Shown here in pieces: positions 27,207 to 38,628 of a stretch of 64,000 nt of DNA. Origin of the DNA: an uncultured Verrucomicrobiae bacterium. Its GTDB lineage: Bacteria > Verrucomicrobiota > Verrucomicrobiia > Chthoniobacterales > Chthoniobacteraceae. Where the stretch lies: contig CAWIKF010000003.1 of NCBI GenBank assembly GCA_963836755.1, positions 1 to 64,000 of the forward strand, written 5' to 3'. Each line of letters begins with the position of its first letter. Position 1 is the first letter of the stretch. Below the pieces are notes generated by a model. That model did not search any database. It had not been told where the DNA came from and saw only the letters and a program-made list of their open reading frames with translations. A program made the translations under genes and the position numbers.

Positions 27207-29102
27207 TTATTTTTTCGGGATTGCCCGCGGATGCAACGCCAGAGCGGCTTCGGCGGGAATTCTCCACACATTATTCTCGTCCTCCGGCGGCACCATTCCC
27301 GGCCCGCCATAGCGCGGCAACTCGCTGGTCCAAAGCGTATCCCAACGTTTGTTTAATGGCGGAGCGAGCAGCGGCTCCGGCGCGGAAACCAATTCCAAAC
27401 TCATTCCAAAATTGACGAGGAGCAGTCGATCGTCGCCATCATTTTTCTCCGAAAAATAACGGAGCACGAACGCGTGCGCGCCGAGCACCGCGCCATCCAC
27501 GCCGCCGCGACGCTGCTCGGAAAAGCGCGCGTCCTCGCGGCGCAAGCGCAGCAAATCAGCGTGAAGCGCGTATGCCGCCGCGTGCGATTTGCGTTCGCGC
27601 AAATCAAGTTTCGAGCGCTCGAACGTCTTTAGATCAGCCGGCCGCGCGAGCTGGTTTCGCGTATCGTCGCTGGCGATACTTGGAAACTGGCTGAGAAATT
27701 TCACGCGCCCCTCGTGGACATAGTCGTGCAGCTTTTCGTTAAGATCGTTGAAATAAAAGAACGGCGACGACGCGCCGAATTCCTGCCCTTGAAAAAGCAT
27801 CGGAGTCCACGGCCCGAGCAGCAGCAGCGTCGTCATCGCGCGGAAACGGCCGGGAGAAGTGTTTGCTCCGACGCGCTGGCCGAAGCCGGTATTCGCGACC
27901 TGATCATGATTCTCGAGAAATCCGATGAACGCAGCCGGCTCGACGTTCAGCGAAGGCGTGCCGCGACGTTTTTTTTGCCAGCGGTAATTTTGACCCTGAT
28001 ACAAAAAGCCTCGTTTCGCGCACGAAACAAATTCCTGCGGCGAGCCTCGATAATCGGTGTAATACGCTTCAGTCCTGCCCGTCAACGCGACGAGCGCGGT
28101 GTGGTGAAAATCATCATTCCAAAGCGCGTCGAGCCCGTGGCCGCCTTGATCCACGGGCAAAATGAGATGCGAATCCTGTGGTTCATTTTCGCCGACGAAA
28201 AACAATGCGCGCTTTCCTGCAGCCTTGCGCGCGGCGTTGGAGATCGACGCCAAAATCGGCTCGTCCGATGCGTCAAAAATTGCCTGCGTCGCATCAAAAC
28301 GGAACCCGTCAAAATGAAATTCGGTGATCCAGTAACAGGCGTTCGTGATGAAAAATTCCCGCACAGGCGCGGAATTTTTGCCGTCAAAGTTGAACGGCTC
28401 GCCCCACTCGCACTCGTAGCGGTCGGAAAAATATTCGTCGGCAAAGTTTCTAAAAAAATTCCCGTCCGGCCCGACGTGATTGTAAACGACGTCAAGGATC
28501 ACGCCGATTCCCGCGGCATGCGCTTCGTTGATGAAATGGCGAAGATCATCCGGCGAACCGTAACCGCAGTATGGCGCAAAAAGCCCAGCGCCGTCATAAC
28601 CCCAACCGAACTTTCCGGGGAAATCATTCACCGGCATCATCTCGATGACCGTCACGCCGAGGCGCGCAAGCTCGTTTAATTCGCGCGCCGCAGCCTGCCA
28701 CGTTCCCGCCGGCGTAAACGTGCCGACGTGCATTTCATAAAGCACCTGGCCGCGCTTTTCGATGCCGCGCCATTTTCCGTCACTCCACGCGAAGGCTGAT
28801 GAATCCACGATCTGCGAGGGACCATGCGCGCTCTCCGGCTGGAAACGCGAAGCGAGGTCAGGCAACAATTCCTTCCCGCCGTCGAGTCGAATACGATAGC
28901 GGGTTCCTGCGCCGACGTTCGCTTCGCCGGAAAAATACCCGCCCTTCTCGCGCGCGAGTTTGCACGTTGACCCCGCGGAATCTTCCAATACCACTTCCAC
29001 TTTTTTCGCCTTTGGCGCCCATACCCGGAAGCTCGTTTTGTCGGCATCCAGAAGTTCGGCGCCGATTGGGAACCGTCGCGCGGTTTGTGATGCTTTTGGC
29101 AT
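27207..29102 (-). CDS. treZ: Malto-oligosyltrehalose trehalohydrolase (GH13)
   Basis: FRVWAP, YEMHVGTFT, WGYDG, DVVYNH.GPDGN, GFRFDATQ, WNDDFHH and ENHDQ. Confidence 0.9.
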   Translation of the reverse strand: MPKASQTARRFPIGAELLDADKTSFRVWAPKAKKVEVVLEDSAGSTCKLAREKGGYFSGEANVGAGTRYRIRLDGGKELLPDLASRFQPESAHGPSQIVDSSAFAWSDGKWRGIEKRGQVLYEMHVGTFTPAGTWQAAARELNELARLGVTVIEMMPVNDFPGKFGWGYDGAGLFAPYCGYGSPDDLRHFINEAHAAGIGVILDVVYNHVGPDGNFFRNFADEYFSDRYECEWGEPFNFDGKNSAPVREFFITNACYWITEFHFDGFRFDATQAIFDASDEPILASISNAARKAAGKRALFFVGENEPQDSHLILPVDQGGHGLDALWNDDFHHTALVALTGRTEAYYTDYRGSPQEFVSCAKRGFLYQGQNYRWQKKRRGTPSLNVEPAAFIGFLENHDQVANTGFGQRVGANTSPGRFRAMTTLLLLGPWTPMLFQGQEFGASSPFFYFNDLNEKLHDYVHEGRVKFLSQFPSIASDDTRNQLARPADLKTFERSKLDLRERKSHAAAYALHADLLRLRREDARFSEQRRGGVDGAVLGAHAFVLRYFSEKNDGDDRLLLVNFGMSLELVSAPEPLLAPPLNKRWDTLWTSELPRYGGPGMVPPEDENNVWRIPAEAALALHPRAIPKK

Positions 29103-29252
29103 TTTCAGTTTACCATCGCGCCTGTTTTGTAAGCTTCAAAAGTTCTGCCGTTAATTCCGACAACGTCGTGAGGAAAGCCACGCCGATCACCATTCCCACA
29201 CGACCGGCATGGCTTTTCCAAGCTTAACAATTCTTTCGCTAATGCCGGATTT

Positions 29253-29747
29253 CTATTCGTCGCCTGCCTCGGCATTCACCGCCGTTTCGGCTAGCTCCGT
29301 CAGTTTCTCGTCAGTCTCTTTTTCCTCCTCCAAAGTCTCGGAAAGAATCTCCGCGATGTCGTCGTGGCCGAGATGCTCCGCGAGCGCGCGGGCAGTGCCG
29401 TAGCCAGCGATTTCATAATGCTCGACGCGCTGCGCCGCACCGATCAGGCCAGCATCGCGCACGGAATCTTCCGCATCTTCGTCGATCATCCCCGCGCCTT
29501 CCTCGACAAGGCCTTCCATCGCTTTGCATTTCACGCCGGTGAGTTTTTTGCCGAGCTGCTCGCCGATTTTGTCGAGCCGCTCGACATGCTCGCGCGTCTG
29601 CTCCAAATGTTCTTCAAAGCCTGCCTTGAGTTCTTCGTTAGTCGCGGCTTTGGCCATTTTCGCCAGCGCTTTCACGAGTTGATTCTCGGCGCTGTAGAGA
29701 TCCTTGAGTTCATGCAGAAATAAGTCTTCGAGTGATTTGAGTTTCAT
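29253..29747 (-). CDS. YciE/YciF (DUF892) ferritin-like stress protein
   Basis: LKDLYSAENQL, HLEQT..HV.RL, CKAMEGLVEEG, AAQRVEHYEIA.YG and TL.EEK.TD..L. Confidence 0.93.
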   Translation of the reverse strand: MKLKSLEDLFLHELKDLYSAENQLVKALAKMAKAATNEELKAGFEEHLEQTREHVERLDKIGEQLGKKLTGVKCKAMEGLVEEGAGMIDEDAEDSVRDAGLIGAAQRVEHYEIAGYGTARALAEHLGHDDIAEILSETLEEEKETDEKLTELAETAVNAEAGDE

Positions 29748-29867
29748 AGTGAAAGGCTTTCGCATGCGGCCGATTCGTTGGACGCGTATTTCATCGCGCC
29801 TGTCGTGAATCACGCGAACTCCTTTAAAAAAAAGGCGCGAATCTTCGCGGGCTCGCGAAATGAAGAG

Positions 29868-30914
29868 ATGCGAAAAGCTGATCCGGCGCTCGCGATTCAT
29901 CCGCCGCTGCCGCCCATGGAAGCGGAGTCGGTGGAAAAAATTCCCGAGGGCGATGAGTGGCGATACGAACCAAAATGGGATGGCTTTCGCTGCATCGCGT
30001 TTCGCGAGGAAGACTCGGTCGAGCTGCAATCAAAATCATCGCAGCCGCTCGCCCGCTACTTTCCGGAGCTTGTTGAAGCGCTGCTGGAAATTTCCGCGAA
30101 GTGCTTCGTGCTCGATGGCGAAATCGCCATTCCCGAGGGCAGCGGCTTTTCATTCGATGCGCTTTTGCAGCGTATTCATCCGGCCGCGTCGCGCGTGCAG
30201 CGGCTCTCGCGCGAGACTCCCGCGATCTACGTCGTTTTCGATTTGCTCGCGGATGAAAATGGCGAGTCATTGCTCGCGAAGCCGCTCGCAGAAAGGCGCG
30301 AGCGGCTGGAGGCCTTTGCGAAAAAGTTTCTCAAGTCACACAAAAGCATCCGCCTTTCGCCCGCGACCCACCTGCTCTCGCACGCGAAAAAGTGGCTCGC
30401 GCACACGGGCGCCACGCTCGACGGCATCATCGCGAAACGCCGCGACCTCGACTATCGATCCGGCGACCGCGACGGGATGCAAAAAATCAAAAACTATCGC
30501 AGCGCCGATTGCGTCGTCGGCGGATTTCGCTACGCGACTGGCTCGCGAGCAGTCGGTTCGCTGCTCCTCGGCCTCTACGATTCCAGCGGTTTGCTGAATC
30601 ACGTCGGCTTCACTTCCTCAATCGCCAAGGCAGATCGCGCGGAGCTCACGAAGAAGCTTGAGGCGCACATTTCGCCGCCAGGCTTCACCGGCGACAAACC
30701 CGGCGGTCCGAGTCGTTGGAATGGCGGCAAAGAGAAAAAGTGGGAGCCGCTCAAGCCGGAACTCGTCATCGAAGTCAGCTACGACCACGTCACCGGCGGC
30801 CGTTTTCGCCACGGCACAAAACTGCTGCGATGGCGTCCAGACAAGGCTCCGCGGCAATGCACGATGGAGCAGCTCGCGCAAAAAGGTGCCAATCTTCTCG
30901 ACCTGCTGCGCTAA
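29868..30914 (+). CDS. ATP-dependent DNA ligase (LigC-like)
   Basis: YEPKWDGFR adenylation motif, LDGEI, FDLL, DG.IAKR, SLLLGLY, PSRW and RFRH...RWRPDK. Confidence 0.92.
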   Translation: MRKADPALAIHPPLPPMEAESVEKIPEGDEWRYEPKWDGFRCIAFREEDSVELQSKSSQPLARYFPELVEALLEISAKCFVLDGEIAIPEGSGFSFDALLQRIHPAASRVQRLSRETPAIYVVFDLLADENGESLLAKPLAERRERLEAFAKKFLKSHKSIRLSPATHLLSHAKKWLAHTGATLDGIIAKRRDLDYRSGDRDGMQKIKNYRSADCVVGGFRYATGSRAVGSLLLGLYDSSGLLNHVGFTSSIAKADRAELTKKLEAHISPPGFTGDKPGGPSRWNGGKEKKWEPLKPELVIEVSYDHVTGGRFRHGTKLLRWRPDKAPRQCTMEQLAQKGANLLDLLR

Positions 30915-30931
30915 GTTTTCCGCGATTTCCG

Positions 30932-32047
30932 CTATTTCCGTTGCGAGGAATTGCGCGGACGCGTCTGCGCTTTCAACCGGCGCTGCAACAGCGTGAGCAC
31001 CGCCGCTTCGTCCGGCCGCAGTTTTGAAAGCTGGCGATCAACCTTCTCCGACGCCCGCTGACGAATCGTTTCAATGGTTCCGCCATCGAGATACGACTCG
31101 AAAATTTTCGGGTGCACGTAACATTTGCGACAGACGGCAGGCGTGTTCCCAAGCATCTTCGCGACCGCTTCGACCGCGGTGACGATATTCTTTTTCGCCT
31201 CCGTCGCATGTTGCACTTTGTCGAACTCTCGCAAGGCAACCGCGGCGAGCACCGTGCCGGCCCACGTGCGGAAATCCTTCGCTGTGAAATCCTCGCCGCA
31301 AATTGCCCGAAGGTAATCGTTCACATCCTGCGAGCTCACGTCGCGCGGCTCGCCGCTTTCATCCTCGTAAACAAAAAGTTCCTGCCCCGGCATGTCCTGA
31401 CAGCGCCGGACGATGCGCGCGAGCTGCGGGTCGCGAAGGCTGATTTCATGCCGCTTCCCGCTCTTTCCACGAAAGGCGAACTCGATTTTTTCGCCGGCGA
31501 CATGCACGTGTCGATTCCGCATCGTCGTCAAGCCATACGACGAATTTTGACGCGCATATTCGTCGTTGCCCACGCGGATCAAAGTTGTCTCCAGCAGGCG
31601 CACGACGGTCGCCAGAACTTTTTCCCGCGGCATTCCGCGGCGCGCTAAATCGCGCCGCACGCGCTGGCGAATGCGCGGCAGCACACGCGCGAATTTCATC
31701 ATGTGCCCAAATTTGTCCTCGTCGCGAACTGCGCGCCATCGGGGATGGTAGCGGTATTGCTTGCGGCCGCGCGCGTCGCGGCCCGTCGCTTGAAGATGAT
31801 CGTTGTTGTGAAGGCTAATCCAAACCCCAGTCCAAGCCGGCGGAATCACAAGACGCTTGATGCGCGCGAGCGTCTCCTCGTCTTTCACGCGTTTCCCATC
31901 GGGCAAAAAATACGCAAAGTTTTTCCCCTGTTTCTGACGACGGATTCCGGGTTTCGTATCATTTGAATAACGAAGTCCCGCCTCACGCGCCTCGCTCGCG
32001 AGCGCGGCCACAAAAGGGTTCGCGCCGTTCTGCAACAATTTTGCCAT
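30932..32047 (-). CDS. Bacterial DNA topoisomerase IB
   Basis: IPPAW..VWI, GRDARGRKQYRYH, IRVGN, F.GKSG, KDFRTW and LGNTPAVCRKCYVHP with the catalytic Tyr. Confidence 0.93.
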   Translation of the reverse strand: MAKLLQNGANPFVAALASEAREAGLRYSNDTKPGIRRQKQGKNFAYFLPDGKRVKDEETLARIKRLVIPPAWTGVWISLHNNDHLQATGRDARGRKQYRYHPRWRAVRDEDKFGHMMKFARVLPRIRQRVRRDLARRGMPREKVLATVVRLLETTLIRVGNDEYARQNSSYGLTTMRNRHVHVAGEKIEFAFRGKSGKRHEISLRDPQLARIVRRCQDMPGQELFVYEDESGEPRDVSSQDVNDYLRAICGEDFTAKDFRTWAGTVLAAVALREFDKVQHATEAKKNIVTAVEAVAKMLGNTPAVCRKCYVHPKIFESYLDGGTIETIRQRASEKVDRQLSKLRPDEAAVLTLLQRRLKAQTRPRNSSQRK

Positions 32048-32640
32048 CACTCGATTTCGAAAGTGACCTCATCGGATGGACGCGTGTCTGCCTTTGAAAA
32101 TCGCGCCATGTGCTCGAGCGCAAAATCATTTTCGCGCTTCGTGTTCGAGACGATGCAATCGCGCGGGACGCTGATTTCATAGTCGCGCATGTATGCGTCG
32201 TTTGCCGTGTAAAGGACGCAGATGTTTCCGGCGATTCCCGTCAAAATCAACCGACGCGCACCAAGGTTTTCCAATAGGATTCCGAGCGTTGTCGAATAGA
32301 AGCCGGAGTGCTTCGGCTTGAGCACGAAATAATCGTCGCGTCCGGGCCGAAGCCTTTCCACAAGTGGCTTCCCGGGCACACCGTCGCGCAGACAGTGATC
32401 GATCTGCCGGCTGAAATCGCTCCGCCAGCGGCCGAAGTTATCGTTAACGTAAATGACCGGAATTCCAGCCGCTGCCGCGCGCTCTTTGAGGGCGAGCAGC
32501 GGCTCCGCCATTTCCTGCGCGGCGGTGACAATTTCTTCGTTGTCAGGAAAATCTAGATCGTTGATCACGTCGATTAGCAGCAGTGCGAGCGGAGATTTTT
32601 CCGGTGCGTCGCCGTGAAGATTTTCATTTTTCGTGGGCAT
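32047..32640 (-). CDS. Isochorismatase family cysteine hydrolase
   Basis: ALLLIDVIND, KPKHSGF and LTGIAGNICVLYTA.DA; D-K-C triad present. Confidence 0.9.
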   Translation of the reverse strand: MPTKNENLHGDAPEKSPLALLLIDVINDLDFPDNEEIVTAAQEMAEPLLALKERAAAAGIPVIYVNDNFGRWRSDFSRQIDHCLRDGVPGKPLVERLRPGRDDYFVLKPKHSGFYSTTLGILLENLGARRLILTGIAGNICVLYTANDAYMRDYEISVPRDCIVSNTKRENDFALEHMARFSKADTRPSDEVTFEIE

Positions 32641-32666
32641 CCGGCGCGGCGACTGAAGTCAAAATC

Positions 32667-33827
32667 TCACGGGTTGATGACGACTTTTACGCAGCCATCT
32701 TTTTTCTCGTTGAAAATTTCATATGCCTGCGCGGCTTCTCCGATGCCGATGCGATGCGTGATGATGTCGTCGAGCTGGATTTTTCCTTGTTCTAGCCACC
32801 CGATGAGCTCGTCAATGTATGCCTGCACGGGCGCCTGTCCGAAGCGCATCGTGATGCCTTTGTCGAAAATCTGGCCGAGCGGAAAGTTGTCGTAAGGAAT
32901 GCTATAAACGCCGAGCACTGAGACTGTGCCGCCGCGGCGGACGGCGCTGATAGCCATTTTGAGGGCCTTGATGCTGCCAGCCTGCGCGTGCAAAACGTTA
33001 CTTATTTTGTCGCCCGCGGTGCGGTCTGCTTCCATGCCGACGGCGTCGATGCAAACGTCCACGCCGCGACCATCGGTCATGCTGCGGATCATTTCCACGG
33101 GATCCTCGACTTCGGCGACATTGATCGTTTCCGAGCGCGCAGCTCTGCGCGCCATCTCCAAACGATACGGCTGGATGTCCAGGCCGATCACACGTTTTGC
33201 CCCTCGCACCCACGCGCATTTTTGTGCCATGAGACCGACAGGGCCACAGCCAAAAACCGCGACGGTTTCGCCACCCTTCATCTGCGCCCATTCCACTCCG
33301 CTGAAGCCGGTCGGAAAAATGTCGGTGAGAAAAAGCACCTGATCATCGCTGAAATCTTCGCGGACTTTTCGCGGACCAAAGTTTGCGTAAGGCACGCGGA
33401 CATATTGTGCCTGGCCTCCATCGTAACCGCCGTAAAGATCGGTGTAGCCAAAGAGCGCGCCGCCCTTTTGATCGAGCACGTTACCCTCCGGTCCATACAT
33501 TTTCGGATTCGAATGTTCGCAGTGTGTCGGCAACTGATTATCACAGAAAAAGCAGTGGCCGCATGAGATGGGAAACGGCACCACCACACGATCCCCGCAT
33601 GAAACGCTCGTCACTTGAGGACCGGTTTCCTCTACGATCCCCATGAATTCATGGCCCATTACCAGCGGCTCTTTTTGCGGGAAAAATCCGTTGTAAATAT
33701 GCAGGTCTGATCCGCAGATCGCGGTGGATGTGACGCGCAGGATGATGTCATCGGGCGCCTCGAGTTTCGGATCGGGAACTTCCTCGACCCGCATGTCTTT
33801 TGGTTTGTGATAGACGACAGCTTTCAT
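32667..33827 (-). CDS. Zinc-dependent alcohol/formaldehyde dehydrogenase (YbdR-like)
   Basis: ICGSDLH, GHEFMG, CGHCFFC..HC, GGQAQYVRVP and FGCGPVG. Confidence 0.92.
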   Translation of the reverse strand: MKAVVYHKPKDMRVEEVPDPKLEAPDDIILRVTSTAICGSDLHIYNGFFPQKEPLVMGHEFMGIVEETGPQVTSVSCGDRVVVPFPISCGHCFFCDNQLPTHCEHSNPKMYGPEGNVLDQKGGALFGYTDLYGGYDGGQAQYVRVPYANFGPRKVREDFSDDQVLFLTDIFPTGFSGVEWAQMKGGETVAVFGCGPVGLMAQKCAWVRGAKRVIGLDIQPYRLEMARRAARSETINVAEVEDPVEMIRSMTDGRGVDVCIDAVGMEADRTAGDKISNVLHAQAGSIKALKMAISAVRRGGTVSVLGVYSIPYDNFPLGQIFDKGITMRFGQAPVQAYIDELIGWLEQGKIQLDDIITHRIGIGEAAQAYEIFNEKKDGCVKVVINP

Positions 33828-33915
33828 TGTGAAAAAAGAACGCGGCACGCTCGCCTCGCGCGTGTTTTTTTCCGATCGGACGTGACTTTCGCGCCCGTAA
33901 TGCGACGCGCGGGAG

Positions 33916-35472
33916 CTATTTTATCAACCGGAGCAGCACGACTCCATGCGGTGGAACATCGGCGGTAAATTCGTCACCGAACGCGCCGAGATCCTTTTGC
34001 CGCCAAAGATCGCGCACTTTCAATTTGCCTTCCGGCAACTTTTTCAGGCTCGCGCGCGTCACCGTGACTTTTGCGGCTGTGGACCGCGTGTTAAACAGAC
34101 CGACCGCCATCGACCCATCTTCCAGCGGCTTCGCATAAACCAAGCCGCCATTTTCGCTGCTGACCTGCGTCGCCTCTTGCCCGAGCGAATCCTGGTCGAT
34201 CGCCAGCACTTCATCATTGGTCAGCAAGCCGAGCGTGAAGTCATCCAGCTGCGCGAGATCGCAGCCAAGCAGGAGCGGCGCGGAAAGCAGACACCAGAGC
34301 GAGATGTGCGTGTATTGCTCGTCGGGCGTGAGATTGCTCGGGTGCAGGTGCGGACCCCAGCCGACTTTGCCGATGACGAGCATGTCGGGATCATTCCAAT
34401 GGCCCGGACCCGCGAACGGCGCCCAGCGGTCCTGCGAAAAACCGATCCCGCTCACGCTTTTCCACGAGTCATTGATGTCGCCGGTAGTGCGCCAGGAATT
34501 CGCGAGCCGCTCGAGGTCTGCGGCGAGCGCAAAGGGCGCGTTGTTTGAAAGGCTGTAAACAAAATCGCGGCCGCTTTCCCGCAAAGCTTTTGCCATCGCG
34601 TCGATTTCCGGGAGACGATTTGGATTCCAGTCGTATTTCAAATAATCAAATCCCCACTCCGCCCACTGCTGCGCGTCTTGTCTATAAAAGGTAAAACTTC
34701 CGACACGCTTTTGCCCCCTCTCCTTGCCCGCGGCATCGAGCTTTTTTTCCGGCGGCCACGCTCCGTCCGCCGTGTCCGCGGTGCCGCCGGCAAAATTTGC
34801 GTAGGACGAAATGAAAGGCGTGGAATAAATCCCGGCCTTCAGCCCCATGCGGTGGATCTCGTCGCAGAGTGCCTGCATGTCGGGAAATTTCCTGTTCGGC
34901 TGAACCGCGTTCAGCGGTCCTCCGCGTTTTCCCTGCCACGTGTCGTCAATGTTGACGTAACTCCATCCATGCTGCGCGAGGCCGTTAGCTACGAACGCCC
35001 GCGCGGCGCTCAGAACTTTTTCCTGGTCGACCGCGCCGGCCCAGCAGTTCCAACTATTCCAGCCCATCGCCGGCGTGAGCGCGATTTTTTCTCCTGCCAC
35101 GATGCGGAACTTTTTCTCCGCGGAACCGAGAGCGTTTCGAGCGCGCAACGTCACGTCGTGCTCGCCAGCTTTCGGTAGTTTGCCGGTGATTTGGCCCGTC
35201 GCCGCGTCAAGTTTCAAACCCGCCGGCAGCCCTTGCGCCAAAAATTTCATCGGCCGCTTTCCAGTCGCCGGAATAGCGAAGAGAAAAGGCGAACCGGGCC
35301 GCGCGCCAAAGACCGACGGACCATTGATGCGCGGCGTTTCCGGCGCGGGCGGCGTGAGAATCTCGCGTTGCGGAGGAGTCGCGGATTTCGCGGGAGTTGC
35401 CGGAGATTCGCCCAGCGTGGATCTGGTCGAAATCGACGCCAACGCGACGATCAACAACGACGAATATTTCAT
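33916..35472 (-). CDS. Secreted GH27 alpha-galactosidase with an N-terminal Ig-like (He_PIG) domain
   Basis: Signal peptide, GLPAGL.LD..TG.ITG, TPAMGWNSWN, NIDDTWQ, YLKYDW, WRTTGDI and WNDPDML. Confidence 0.92.
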   Translation of the reverse strand: MKYSSLLIVALASISTRSTLGESPATPAKSATPPQREILTPPAPETPRINGPSVFGARPGSPFLFAIPATGKRPMKFLAQGLPAGLKLDAATGQITGKLPKAGEHDVTLRARNALGSAEKKFRIVAGEKIALTPAMGWNSWNCWAGAVDQEKVLSAARAFVANGLAQHGWSYVNIDDTWQGKRGGPLNAVQPNRKFPDMQALCDEIHRMGLKAGIYSTPFISSYANFAGGTADTADGAWPPEKKLDAAGKERGQKRVGSFTFYRQDAQQWAEWGFDYLKYDWNPNRLPEIDAMAKALRESGRDFVYSLSNNAPFALAADLERLANSWRTTGDINDSWKSVSGIGFSQDRWAPFAGPGHWNDPDMLVIGKVGWGPHLHPSNLTPDEQYTHISLWCLLSAPLLLGCDLAQLDDFTLGLLTNDEVLAIDQDSLGQEATQVSSENGGLVYAKPLEDGSMAVGLFNTRSTAAKVTVTRASLKKLPEGKLKVRDLWRQKDLGAFGDEFTADVPPHGVVLLRLIK

Positions 35473-35498
35473 GGAGAAGACGCGGGAGGTTGCGATTT

Positions 35499-36692
35499 TC
35501 AAACGTGTCCACGCTCCACCAGCGTGTCGAGATTGAAGACGCGGCGTAGTCCGGTGCGCGTGTTGCGAAAGACAATTTCATACCAGCCCTGCATTCGCTC
35601 GGGCGCATAAATTTCGCGCCCGACCTGCAGCGGTCGATGCTCGAGGATGCGGTGAATCACGCGCTCATACGCACTGTGCGGCAGCGCGCGCGTGGAGCGG
35701 CGGTTCCAATCAATGACGCGACCTACATCATCGTAGGAAGGCGGCCTCTCCGGAAAATCGAGCAGCGAACGCGCCCGCTCGTCGAAGACCGCGAAGATGT
35801 GCTCGACGCAATCACCATCAGTGACCGCGGCGATGTCGTTGAGGAACGGTAGGGCAATCTTGCGGGCGATCTCACGCAGGCTCATCGTGCGTCCGTCGAC
35901 CGTGAGCCAGTCGCGCGCATTCGGATCGGCCACGAATGGATTGCGTGGAAAACAATCGAACCGCGCGAGGAATCCCTTGCGCGAGGTGTGCTTGCGCGGT
36001 CGAAAACCCGCGATGACAGGAATGCCTTTTTTTTTCAACTGCCCCACCTCATGCGACGGCCAGCGTAGCACGCCGAGGATCACGCCGATGGCAAGCGATG
36101 CCGCGGCGACCATGAGGTCAGGATCAGGCGTGAAATCGACCGTGACCTCGATGCGATCGCCGCGCGGCCGCACGCCGACGCCCGTGCTGAGCCGATTCGC
36201 GGCGAGAAGCATCACCGGCACATGTAAAACATATGTCAAAAGTCGTGCGAGCTGCCGAATCCCGCGCTCACTCAGCGCGCATTCCGCCGGCACCGAGACA
36301 TTGAAATGCGTGGAAAATCCTTCGAGCCGCACGTGCGAATCTGCACGCGCTTCCCATGCATCGAGCTCGCTGCGAAGAAACGAAATTTGATCCCATAGCG
36401 AGCGGGCCGCACGGACGCAGCAGCCCGGCTCGATCTCGATGATCGGCGTGGCCACCTCGATGACGCCGGTGTCGAAATAAATCGCGCCGCCGGATGGCAT
36501 GTGAAACGAGCGGCCCGTCCGCGGAAGCATTCGAGCACGGACAATTTCCTGCGGATTTTTAAATACCTGTTCGGGCCTCTGTTTCTGGTCGCGAACGAAA
36601 AGCGTAAATTCCGCTTCAAAGCCGACAACCGCCCGGCGCGGCTGAATGCCTGTCGAACTTTTTTCACCGCGGGCTTTGCCATTTTCCGCCAT
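35499..36692 (-). CDS. PafA/Dop-like carboxylate-amine ligase (glutamine synthetase / gamma-GCS fold)
   Basis: VGFEAEF, SGGAIYFD, IEVATP, STHFNVS, DRIEVTVD and DGRTMSLREI align by eye with PafA motifs MGIETEF, NGARLYLD, PEYAT, GCHENY, RRLHVIVGD and the GR..SALDIQ segment. Confidence 0.72.
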   Translation of the reverse strand: MAENGKARGEKSSTGIQPRRAVVGFEAEFTLFVRDQKQRPEQVFKNPQEIVRARMLPRTGRSFHMPSGGAIYFDTGVIEVATPIIEIEPGCCVRAARSLWDQISFLRSELDAWEARADSHVRLEGFSTHFNVSVPAECALSERGIRQLARLLTYVLHVPVMLLAANRLSTGVGVRPRGDRIEVTVDFTPDPDLMVAAASLAIGVILGVLRWPSHEVGQLKKKGIPVIAGFRPRKHTSRKGFLARFDCFPRNPFVADPNARDWLTVDGRTMSLREIARKIALPFLNDIAAVTDGDCVEHIFAVFDERARSLLDFPERPPSYDDVGRVIDWNRRSTRALPHSAYERVIHRILEHRPLQVGREIYAPERMQGWYEIVFRNTRTGLRRVFNLDTLVERGHV

Positions 36693-36698
36693 GGCTTT

Positions 36699-37292
36699 TC
36701 AAAGCGCTTCGTCGCACTCGCGAGGCACGTAAATCACGTAACCGATATCGAGATGAAGGTGATCGTCGGATTCGTCAGCGCCGTGACCAAAAGGCTTCGC
36801 CCGGATTTCGGGCGCGATTGATTCCGCCACACGCGCATATTTTTCAATGCTCTTTTCATCATCGAGAAACGTATCGCCGATGCGGTAGATGTTCGCCGCG
36901 GTCGCCCAAAGATGCAGGCTCCCTTCGCGCGAATGCGCGTGCGCCGGCGAGCGGTAGCCACCATTCGTGGCGATGAAGACCGGCGCGTCAACTTTGTCCC
37001 GAAACGCCTGCAAGTAGTGCGCGAAAATCGAGACGGTGCACGGCACATAATGCGGAAAAGTGTTTAGCAACAGATCAGCCTCGCGCGAATCCACCGACAT
37101 CATTTCCGCGAAAGTGAAATGGGCGCTGATCCGCAATTTCTTCGCATCTTCCCAAGTCGGGATTTCATAGAAAAAACGCGGCAGCGCGTGTCTGCATCCC
37201 GTGCGATCGGCCAGTATCTCAGCGGGACGCAAAAGTTTTTGCGTCGCAGCATCGAGGGATCTTGCATCGACGATATTTGGCCTCTCAGTCAT
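36699..37292 (-). CDS. Peptidase M15-like (DD-peptidase/hedgehog fold) protein, second Zn ligand Asp->Asn
   Basis: HFT..E, GGYRSP, S.H.WATAANI (HxxxxxxN) and HLHLD; no signal peptide. Start 37292. Confidence 0.68.
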   Translation of the reverse strand: MTERPNIVDARSLDAATQKLLRPAEILADRTGCRHALPRFFYEIPTWEDAKKLRISAHFTFAEMMSVDSREADLLLNTFPHYVPCTVSIFAHYLQAFRDKVDAPVFIATNGGYRSPAHAHSREGSLHLWATAANIYRIGDTFLDDEKSIEKYARVAESIAPEIRAKPFGHGADESDDHLHLDIGYVIYVPRECDEAL

Positions 37293-38127
37293 TTGTTTTA
37301 CTTCCGACAATGAAATCAAAAATCGTTTTCGAAATTTTCGCAATTTGCGCGTGACGATTTTCCACGTCCGTGGACATCTGCGTGAGAATCGTGAGGACGT
37401 AAGGCTTTCGTCCGACGGGAAAAATAATGCCTCCATCATGCGCAACCGTGGAGATTTCGCCGGTCTTGTGCGCGATGCGAGTCTCCTTCGGAAGACCCGC
37501 AGGGATCATGCTGTTAAACTCCTGCGCGTGCAAAATCTCCAGCATTTGCTCCCGCGTTTCTCTTCGCAAAAAACTCTCCTCACATAGCACGCGGAACAGG
37601 GTGGCAAACCCTTCCGCAGTGATTTCGTTGTTGATCCCCATTTCGAAAGCTTTGGTGTCCTCGACGCCACGCACGAATTTGACGGCGTCGATTCCCGCCT
37701 TGCGCAACACGCTCTGAACCGTTTCCACGCCGAGATAATCGAGCAGCAGATTCGTCGCAAGATTGCTGCTCCGCGTGATCATCACGCGCGCCAGCTCGCG
37801 CACGCGCAGCGCGCGCCCGATCCGTTTGTGAAGATCGACATCGCCATCGCGGCTGCCCGCCACGCGGAAGATTGATCCATCCGCGAGGCTGTGGAATCGA
37901 TTGCGAACGTGGAGCGTGTCGTCGAGCCGGATGCGGCCCTCCTCGGCCCTTTTGTAAACCGCGAGCAGCAATGGGACTTTGATTGTGCTCGCAGCGTGAA
38001 AATAGCGACCGCTCTCGTGTGAAAATTCGCGACCGGTTTCGTAGTCGTGAAAAGCAACGGCAACGGCGTCAAATTTCGCGTCAGCGGCGATTTGCAAAAT
38101 TTGCTCCAACAGCGCTCGATCGGCCAT
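37285..38127 (-). CDS. Class A beta-lactamase-like serine hydrolase (beta-lactamase2 family)
   Basis: AASTIK (SxxK), RSSNLATN (SxN) and AHKTG; lacks the class A ExxLN omega loop and a signal peptide. Confidence 0.88.
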   Translation of the reverse strand: MADRALLEQILQIAADAKFDAVAVAFHDYETGREFSHESGRYFHAASTIKVPLLLAVYKRAEEGRIRLDDTLHVRNRFHSLADGSIFRVAGSRDGDVDLHKRIGRALRVRELARVMITRSSNLATNLLLDYLGVETVQSVLRKAGIDAVKFVRGVEDTKAFEMGINNEITAEGFATLFRVLCEESFLRRETREQMLEILHAQEFNSMIPAGLPKETRIAHKTGEISTVAHDGGIIFPVGRKPYVLTILTQMSTDVENRHAQIAKISKTIFDFIVGSKTND

Positions 38128-38130
38128 GCA

Positions 38131-38628
38131 TCAGCCCTCCCGCTGGATCGCGAGCAGCTTTTCATAGAGCGCGCCGAGCGATTCGGCCATCACCCGCGTG
38201 CCCGCGAGCACGGGCATGAAATTGGTGTCGCCCGCCCAGCGGGGAACGATGTGCAGGTGCAAATGATCGGCAAAGCCTGCTCCAGCGCATTCACCGATAT
38301 TTAACCCGATGTTAAATCCCTGCGCATTCGCGATTTTCCGCAGAAGCTTTTGTGCGTGGGCCGCCAGCTCCCACAGCTCGAGCTGCTCGCGCTCCGTCAG
38401 CTCAGCGACGTCGGCCACTTTGCGGTAAGGGACCGCCATCATGTGGCCGACGGCGTATGGAAAACGGTTCAGGATCAAAAACGCATTGCGGCGGCGGGCG
38501 ACGACGAGATGCGCCGCGTCATCCGATGCTTGCGCGGCGTCTGTCAAAAAATTGCGAGACTTGTCGATTGAAAAATATTCAACCCGCCAAGGCGCCCAAA
38601 GTGCTTCAAGATCGTCTGGAAAGCTCAT
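38131..38628 (-). CDS. HIT family protein (Ap4A phosphorylase / FHIT-like)
   Basis: LWAPWR..Y, LN.FPY..GH, GFNIGLN.G..AGAG..HLHLHIVPRW.GD.NF. Confidence 0.92.
   Translation of the reverse strand: MSFPDDLEALWAPWRVEYFSIDKSRNFLTDAAQASDDAAHLVVARRRNAFLILNRFPYAVGHMMAVPYRKVADVAELTEREQLELWELAAHAQKLLRKIANAQGFNIGLNIGECAGAGFADHLHLHIVPRWAGDTNFMPVLAGTRVMAESLGALYEKLLAIQREG

Follow-up and report, generated by a model that had tools for sequence, protein, structure and literature searches.

Three tightly coupled genes on the reverse strand of the 64,000-nucleotide stretch analysed here (contig CAWIKF010000003.1 of an uncultured Verrucomicrobiae bacterium, referred to as the window) form a real and conserved cassette that is undescribed in the literature searched. 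They encode a ligase-fold protein of an unnamed family, an M15-like protein and a serine hydrolase. The ligase stands close in structure to the pupylation enzymes PafA and Dop and is not a member of their family. It represents a real, separate lineage, because C. flavus holds the same trio plus, apart from it, canonical PafA, Dop and UBact. With regard to function, we propose that the cassette edits peptidoglycan stem peptides in the cytoplasm, the ligase forming an amide at a D-glutamyl residue or, less probably, cleaving one; the chances of this reading are judged to be about even. The three genes are:

35499-36692, reverse strand: ligase-fold protein of an unnamed family (open reading frame (ORF) of 397 amino acids; AlphaFold2 model, Foldseek, VIA-align and 94-row conservation alignment)
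36699-37292, reverse strand: M15A-like protein with Hedgehog/DD-peptidase fold (197 amino acids, ATG start; weak PF08291 match, model and 1LBU)
37285-38127, reverse strand: PBP-A-like serine hydrolase with Beta-lactamase2 fold (280 amino acids; PF13354 at E 1e-53)

The genes for the serine hydrolase and the M15-like protein overlap by 8 nucleotides, and 6 nucleotides separate the latter from the ligase gene, which bears out the tight coupling described in the first-pass annotation of this stretch, made from the letters alone. Within the host genome of 3.18 Mb the window corresponds to contig C3, and the closest relatives that bear a name belong to the Chthoniobacterales.

The ligase contains, in this order, the motifs GFEAE at residue 24, GGAIYFD at 68, EVAT at 79, HFN at 129, RIEVTVD at 180 and DGRTMS at 266. 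The ordered series never arose when the protein was shuffled 200,000 times, and it occurs in one of the 2,943 open frames of at least 250 amino acids in the genome; since the six motifs were picked after the protein had been seen, the structural match described below is a stronger test than the shuffles. The series had been taken as that of PafA/Dop, and all six motifs are indeed present in order, but RIExxxD is not a PafA/Dop motif, H-x4-D being found there instead. Key residues are E26, E28, D74, E79, H129, R175, R180, E182 and D186, and a C-terminal β-domain at about residues 345-397 contains G369-W370.

The AlphaFold2 model of the ligase, based on 37 sequences, has a predicted local distance difference test score (pLDDT) of 91.7 and a predicted TM-score of 0.90. 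Foldseek ranked PafA on top (E 7.8e-10), followed by Dop, YbdK and glutamine synthetases. Superposition with VIA-align gave a Z-score of 19.0 for PafA (root-mean-square deviation (rmsd) 4.2 for 330 aligned residues, model residues 20-397 on residues 10-466 of the 4BJR chain), of 18.2 for Dop, which is tied with PafA within 1, and of 17.3 for the YbdK-like 1TT4 (rmsd 3.5, 257 aligned residues, model residues 14-328). The protein belongs to the carboxylate-amine ligase (GS/GCS-fold) superfamily, as it has the fold core and every element of the published signature (PMC2588565): GhExE, acidic residues in strands 2-3, an [HD]x[NH] motif (here HxN) in strand 4 and an arginine in strand 5.

Conservation was assessed in an alignment of 94 rows, namely 80 loci, 13 further loci and the query. 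D74, E79, H129, R175, R177, R180, E182, T184, D186, H235, R238 and G240 are invariant in all rows, E26 and E28 are present in 93 with the remaining row gapped, and N131 is present in 92. The motif H235-T-S-R238-K-G240 is specific to the family. Sequence searches in Pfam, NCBIfam, PADLOC and the PDB yielded no name for the ligase and only PF00120 at E 0.14, and the ESM Atlas returned unnamed clusters and then Pup_ligase (0.86) and GCS2 (0.85), which are leads only. The family is large and tight: of 8,000 candidates that were scored, at least 3,961 are relatives, and clustering at 50% leaves 441 representatives. Full-text literature searches returned no description of the ligase family or of the cassette, within a scope that did not include Iyer 2009 (amidoligases) and the additional file of PMC2588565, either of which could mention the family; two orphan families named in PMC2588565 have neighbours other than the cassette partners.

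The host genome, which is 96.1% complete, contains no PF03136, proteasome β/α subunit (PF00227), Pup, UBact or ARC OB domain according to profile searches, so that the lack of pup/ubact, arc and proteasome genes already noticed in the window extends to the whole genome. The positive controls of these searches fired (PF03136, PF00227, PF05639 and PF16450), and UBact was found in two of five genomes. Pup and UBact were likewise not found in two other cassette hosts. PF03136 occurs in three of the five cassette hosts of one set and in none of the five of another, and UBact-bearing hosts carry their own PafA and Dop; in C. flavus these two, UBact and ARC are encoded elsewhere than the trio (locus L022). 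A Pup-like tag was found neither near the cassette nor as the C-terminus of a partner. Among the 60 largest clusters of small ORFs outside the trio none is common across lineages except one of 20 loci, which resembles a shadow frame and whose end is not Glu/Gln, and no trio protein has a conserved last residue, be it Glu/Gln or another. Genome-wide, 8 of 26,262 small ORFs are acidic and end in G[EQ]; as the acidity filter would also drop the UBact control, the hidden Markov model searches are the actual test.

The trio recurs well beyond the window. A scan of species-representative genomes confirmed at least 549 of 599 candidate stretches, of which the best 80 were kept, a selection biased to close relatives. 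In 77 of these 80 loci the hydrolase, M15-like and ligase genes lie in the same order and on the same strand; two of the exceptions (L010, L012) are situated at contig ends and the third (L017) lacks a hydrolase within 8 kb. In L011 two genes are inserted in the cassette. Phylum samples added ligase matches from 6 of 151 genomes of Gemmatimonadota (5 if the unpublished G402 is set aside) and from 7 of 201 genomes of Acidobacteriota. The 13 loci from 10 genomes of these two phyla comprise 10 trios and 3 solo second copies that accompany a trio elsewhere, and two distant metagenome loci hold one trio and one solo ligase, the most divergent of all with 32% identity. Among 301 genomes of the window's own phylum a real ligase match was found only in the window genome. 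Out of 121 genomes of the order 11 contain the ligase and the same 10 contain all three genes, the eleventh combining a solo ligase with a piece of a hydrolase at the end of a contig; the ligase-negative genomes are devoid of M15-like and hydrolase orthologues, the one exception being a weak paralogue of the hydrolase. When compared by pairwise identity, the three proteins correlate with a rho of 0.82-0.88. Resemblance to the GS/GCS fold nearest PafA/Dop, a trio conserved around homologues and separateness from the canonical enzymes in a genome with its own pupylation locus, the points on which the first-pass annotation had made its proposal depend, were all found.

Several copies deviate from this pattern. 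Three acidobacterial genomes (L115, L116, L120) contain a second, solo ligase that forms its own clade and keeps the catalytic residues, with Gly/Cys changes beside D74 and H129. The most divergent member (L130:6001-7203) has a degraded-looking C-terminal region and lies amid ORFs that resemble mobile or defence elements and non-ribosomal peptide synthetases. L040 and L064, labelled Nitrospirota and Acidobacteriota/Pyrinomonadaceae, respectively, nest in the Ca. Udaeobacter clade and are probably mis-binned contigs or recent transfers; they were not counted as extra phyla. The long 'fused' representatives P0149, P0158, P0240 and P0274 look like frameshifted reads and were discarded, and no relative was found on the viral contigs searched. 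No RNA holder turned up either, which carries no information about expression. Some acidobacterial and gemmatimonad copies contain insertions or tails of low complexity with [DE]RR / RxxxR repeats, often after Tyr/Phe, which the window copy lacks. They are reminiscent of arginine-rich repeats that bind cyclic di-GMP and may add second-messenger control. The repeat-bearing copies are:

L114:7485-8927, L115, L117, L118, L119 and L126: ligases
L114, L117-L119 and L121: C-termini of M15-like proteins

The serine hydrolase carries the motifs S47xxK50 (SxxK), S120xN122 (SxN) and K221TG (221-223), and the best PDB match of its family is PBP-A (2J7V, E 2.9e-39). At the position of the deacylating glutamate in the omega-loop of class A enzymes a valine is found in all 86 ungapped rows. 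The protein scores below every NCBIfam beta-lactamase cut-off shown (NF033103, 122 bits against 200). A class A beta-lactamase was thus rejected: SxxK, SxN and KTG are present, but the omega-loop glutamate, the export signal and the curated score all fail. Judged by its sequence, the hydrolase is PBP-A-like, that is, of the DD-peptidase type. PBP-A is a DD-carboxy/endopeptidase with a strong preference for D-isoglutamine muropeptides, Glu96 having been proposed from simulation as the filter (PMC11189452). The equivalent position, Ambler 104, is occupied in the hydrolase by D94 (Asp in 82 of 83 ungapped rows), placed 26 residues before the SxN serine.

The M15-like protein matches PF08291 at E 3e-4 with 21.3 bits, under the cut-off of 23.2. 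Its model (pLDDT 88.3) superposes best on 1LBU (Z 8.5, rmsd 3.1, 110 aligned residues; best Foldseek E 0.008), and the next 15 structural rows mostly show the Hedgehog/DD-peptidase fold. Characteristic residues are R114, H118, H127, N134, which takes the place of the aspartate zinc ligand, and D177-H178-x-H180. In 90 copies the zinc triad reads H/D/H in 30 and H/N/H in 47, the window copy included, while the third ligand is changed in 13, one of them a probable frameshift; the second and third ligands are never both altered. The Asp/Asn switch occurred at least 7 times on the FastTree ligase tree. Either an invariant neighbour (H118, D177) may offset the lost ligand, or catalysis may be dispensable. 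Of the M15-like peptidase originally proposed the fold thus remains, but with Asn134 at the zinc site the label 'peptidase' is unproven.

Export signals were sought as a hydrophobic stretch of nine residues upstream of the domain. Such a stretch is lacking in all but one of 81 hydrolases, all but one of 89 M15-like proteins and all but one of 92 ligases; the three flagged ORFs are over-long, with N-terminal extensions reaching out of the gene. The lack of signal peptides reported for the window's three proteins therefore holds for their families and fits an ATP-using cytoplasmic system.

Stem-peptide editing is favoured because both partners are of the DD-peptidase type and because the N-acyl-Glu(γ)-amine topology of L-Ala-γ-D-Glu-meso-diaminopimelate (mDAP) is that of pupylated Gly-Glu(γ)-Lys (PMC8599861). 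Substrates of the cassette would be imported turnover products or nucleotide-linked precursors. The ligase is expected to bind ATP and Mg and to phosphorylate the glutamyl carboxylate, with D74 presumably activating the attacking nucleophile as in PafA/Dop. Its substrate would be a short peptide, not a Pup tag plus protein, and most plausibly the D-glutamyl residue of an L-Ala-γ-D-Glu-mDAP type peptide. The reaction would be the formation of an amide, either by amidation or by joining on an amine or an amino acid, an assignment that is possible but tentative; hydrolysis in the manner of Dop is regarded as unlikely. Amide formation is preferred because Dop is described as the one superfamily member that hydrolyses (PMC7947786), and because of the distribution of MpaA-like and epimerase-like genes given below. 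The PBP-A-like enzyme may remove the terminal D-Ala or open 4-3 cross-links, possibly favouring amidated peptides like PBP-A, and the M15-like protein may trim further; as its zinc site is often broken, it may instead bind peptide or act as a subunit.

Neighbouring genes of individual lineages fit stem-peptide editing. In Gemmatimonadota an oligopeptide-ABC (Opp-type) permease lies directly upstream at 7 of 95 loci and an Mpl-like ligase downstream at 6, and in Acidobacteriota dapA-dapD-aminotransferase genes lie upstream and a lytic transglycosylase downstream at 4 of 95. Mainly in one verrucomicrobial clade, a C26 class I glutamine amidotransferase-like gene (45/95) and a POT peptide transporter (44/95) are found. 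MurT_C was detected in none of the 121 genomes of the order and in none of five other hosts; hence, any D-Glu amidation in these hosts would need another enzyme. In the window genome itself an MpaA-like gene and one resembling L-Ala-D/L-Glu epimerase form a divergent, adjacent pair (G000:C2:946180-947763), both under the NCBIfam cut-offs. Of the remaining 10 genomes with the ligase, 9 are without an epimerase-like match; together with the pair this argues against a hydrolytic version of the proposal. Within the order, MpaA-like matches occur only in the family of the window genome. A role of the cassette as MpaA replacement is weakened by this pair and its absence pattern, and replacement of LdcA is unsupported, LdcA being missing from 115 of 121 genomes with or without the cassette. 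Most Chthoniobacterales in the 121-genome sample recycle peptides without a known L,D-carboxypeptidase, irrespective of the cassette.

A number of observations weigh against stem-peptide editing. The neighbours just mentioned represent lineage-specific synteny, are not independent, and none of them lies beside the window trio. MurT is equally missing from relatives without the cassette, neither Mpl (111/121) nor LdcA (6/121) tracks it, and 2 of the 11 ligase-positive genomes are without an intact Mpl match. An acidic residue at Ambler 104 is also present in ordinary class A enzymes, which makes D94 weak evidence, and 60 of the 90 M15-like copies have a disturbed zinc triad. Some ligases (L115, L116, L120, L130, L132) stand alone. 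The in-frame fusion of M15-like protein and ligase in P0273 (733 amino acids, on a 370-kb contig), otherwise a point in favour of the cassette, is a single record whose linker resembles read-through and which may be an error. Furthermore, GS-fold and PafA/Dop enzymes act on L-glutamate, and both substrate and activity of the ligase are predictions.

Alternatively, the cassette might make, salvage or detoxify a small non-peptidoglycan peptide such as a γ-glutamyl amide, a D-amino-acid peptide or a peptide antibiotic, the ligase γ-glutamylating or amidating a metabolite and both hydrolase-fold proteins maturing or cleaving it. We consider this somewhat unlikely. Small metabolites are the products of most superfamily members, and this kind of role was assigned to other orphan families by their neighbourhood (PMC2588565). 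The patchy presence in 11 of 121 genomes suits an accessory soil function, but across lineages the cassette has no constant companion gene for tailoring, export or regulation, and both partners are closest to peptidoglycan DD-peptidases. The C26 gene, γ-glutamyl hydrolase-like and divergently adjoining the cassette in the 45 loci, recalls the pairs of GS-fold ligase and C26 enzyme in polyamine catabolism; in the window genome, however, it resides on another contig.

Modification of proteins independent of Pup, in which Glu or a short, possibly wall-derived peptide would be attached to protein lysines and trimmed or removed by the partners, is quite unlikely. PafA and Dop are the nearest structures, the C-terminal domain and catalytic aspartate are retained, and the solo second paralogue of three acidobacterial genomes recalls the PafA/Dop pair. 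On the other hand, the window genome and two other hosts lack Pup and UBact, no small ORF is conserved across lineages within the clusters inspected, no partner ends in a conserved Glu/Gln, and the stretch that holds the target-contacting loop is 29-37 residues shorter, as is, by about 50, the part running from DGR up to the C-terminal domain. These findings weaken the protein tag that the first-pass annotation had listed among possible substrates, and its cycle of ligation and cleavage on one bond is unsupported as written. An improbable version of protein modification would be a third PafA/Dop branch that uses a peptidoglycan-derived peptide as tag on lysines of cytoplasmic proteins (or the reverse), a covalent signal of cell-wall status; speculatively, the peptidase-fold partners would shorten stem peptides taken up by the cell until a Glu-terminated unit is left, the γ-carboxylate of which the ligase would then join. 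A divergent but canonical PafA/Dop acting on a Pup or UBact encoded elsewhere would agree with the structural closeness and with hosts that own UBact and PafA/Dop. This is largely refuted and highly improbable, as PF03136 matches neither the ligase nor 37 members, the window genome has no pupylation genes, five further hosts lack PF03136, and UBact hosts keep their own PafA and Dop.

Returning to the locus, the three-gene module is conserved as proposed but embedded in a longer, closely spaced run of genes on the same strand: lpxI, Gfo/Idh/MocA, lpxB, glycosyltransferase, HIT, the trio and α-galactosidase. In the 80 closest loci the trio is the sole conserved part of this run. The genes that flank it are:

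38131-38628, reverse strand: HIT-family protein, upstream in the gene run (PF01230)
33916-35502, reverse strand: α-galactosidase, directly downstream of the ligase (PF16499)

Both were rejected as cassette members, the HIT gene occurring in 13 of 80 loci and being linked in one clade only, and the α-galactosidase lying beside the trio in none of the 80 as compared. The latter (33916-35502) apparently carries a signal peptide, has an Ig-like domain in its N-terminal part, overlaps or closely follows the ligase stop, and is unique to the window locus among the 80. A scan of the locus for promoters and terminators performed no better than chance. At 27207-33848 the window contains a cluster of the general-stress-island type with an ATP-dependent DNA ligase, a bacterial topoisomerase IB and a Zn alcohol dehydrogenase, together with what we take, from motifs, to be malto-oligosyltrehalose trehalohydrolase-like, ferritin-like and isochorismatase-like genes.

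In PafA/Dop, both the C-terminal domain and the active site have been regarded as pupylation-specific, and the ligase family has both without linkage to Pup or proteasome. It bears on the origin of pupylation from small-molecule ligases and might reveal a pre-Pup form of PafA/Dop. If stem-peptide editing is correct, the cassette would represent a new chemistry by which cell-wall peptides are modified or recycled. It would operate in soil bacteria of high abundance (Chthoniobacterales including Ca. Udaeobacter, Gemmatimonadota and Acidobacteriota) that yielded no match to the known enzyme of D-Glu amidation. As the three proteins are soluble and the substrates commercially tractable, the proposal is open to direct testing, and C. 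flavus has the cassette.

In comparison with PafA/Dop (PF03136; PDB codes 4BJR, 7OY3, 9CKU), the ligase shares the fold across nearly the whole chain including the C-terminal domain, as well as GhExE, the catalytic aspartate, E79, HxN, the strand-5 arginine, DGR..S and the tryptophan of the C-terminal domain. This small domain is described as exclusive to pupylation enzymes (PMC8599861); as the structural match reaches residue 397, the ligase has it too, GWYEIVF corresponding to QWDEI of PafA/Dop. The catalytic aspartate after YxD, D74 (94/94), is in motif register with Dop D94, and by motif order R175 probably corresponds to R227, E182 to H241 and W370 to W453; equivalences in the middle rest on motif order since MAFFT misaligns this region between the ligase family and PafA/Dop. 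Similarly, R167 (Arg in 87 of 94 rows, Lys in 6) is, by motif order only and where sequence alignment fails, a candidate for PafA R201/Dop R205, the arginine that binds the terminal carboxylate of Pup.

Significant differences are observed at the sequence level. Identity to PafA/Dop is 12-14%, the position of Dop R90 is Ala, the PF03136 profile gave no ligase hit at E<=1 and matched 0 of 37 family members at E<=0.1, and hhalign of the family against a four-sequence PafA/Dop alignment covered 25 columns only, with a probability of 61%. On strand 6 the ligase reads R180-I-E182-V-T184-V-D186, with Glu in 94 of 94 rows, instead of H-x4-D, which was verified in C. flavus PafA and Dop; the published motif is [QH]x4D for PafA, whereas the other ligases have Ex[RK]x2D (PMC2588565). 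The Dop-loop of about 40 residues after strand 1 is absent, motifs 1 and 2 being 44 residues apart compared to 56 in PafA and 87 in Dop of C. flavus. Relative to C. flavus Dop/PafA, the helical region from DGR to the C-terminal domain is shortened, as is the stretch from HxN to the strand-5 arginine, which in the known enzymes contains an extended loop contacting the protein target (bioRxiv 10.64898/2026.04.10.717840; PMC7947786). The genomic setting differs as well, the ligase being tied to two peptidase-fold genes and not to pup/ubact, arc or proteasome genes. With GCS2/YbdK (PF04107; 1TT4, 1R8G) and glutamine synthetases the ligase shares the core fold and the strand-6 glutamate; the match stops at residue 328 with no C-terminal domain, the strand-6 arginine of Ex[RK]x2D is replaced by T184 (94/94), and the PF04107 profile gave no hit.

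Mpl, LdcA, MpaA/YcjG and MurT/GatD have the same proposed substrates and compartment as the cassette, but the ligase fold is unrelated to them and their presence does not follow that of the cassette. The M15-like protein shares fold, NGGxRS, the first histidine ligand and HxH with the Streptomyces Zn D-Ala-D-Ala carboxypeptidase of the M15A type (1LBU; PF08291) and with MepK/YcbK-like proteins, from which it differs by the missing export signal, the additional invariant H118 and the near-invariant D177. The hydrolase resembles PBP-A of Thermosynechococcus elongatus in the hydrophobic residue at the omega-loop glutamate site and the acid at the Glu96 site; PBP-A has an N-terminal membrane anchor that the hydrolase family lacks, while the latter is distinguished by an 11-residue insertion before Ambler 104 and by the motifs RGV[ED]D and KTGEIST.

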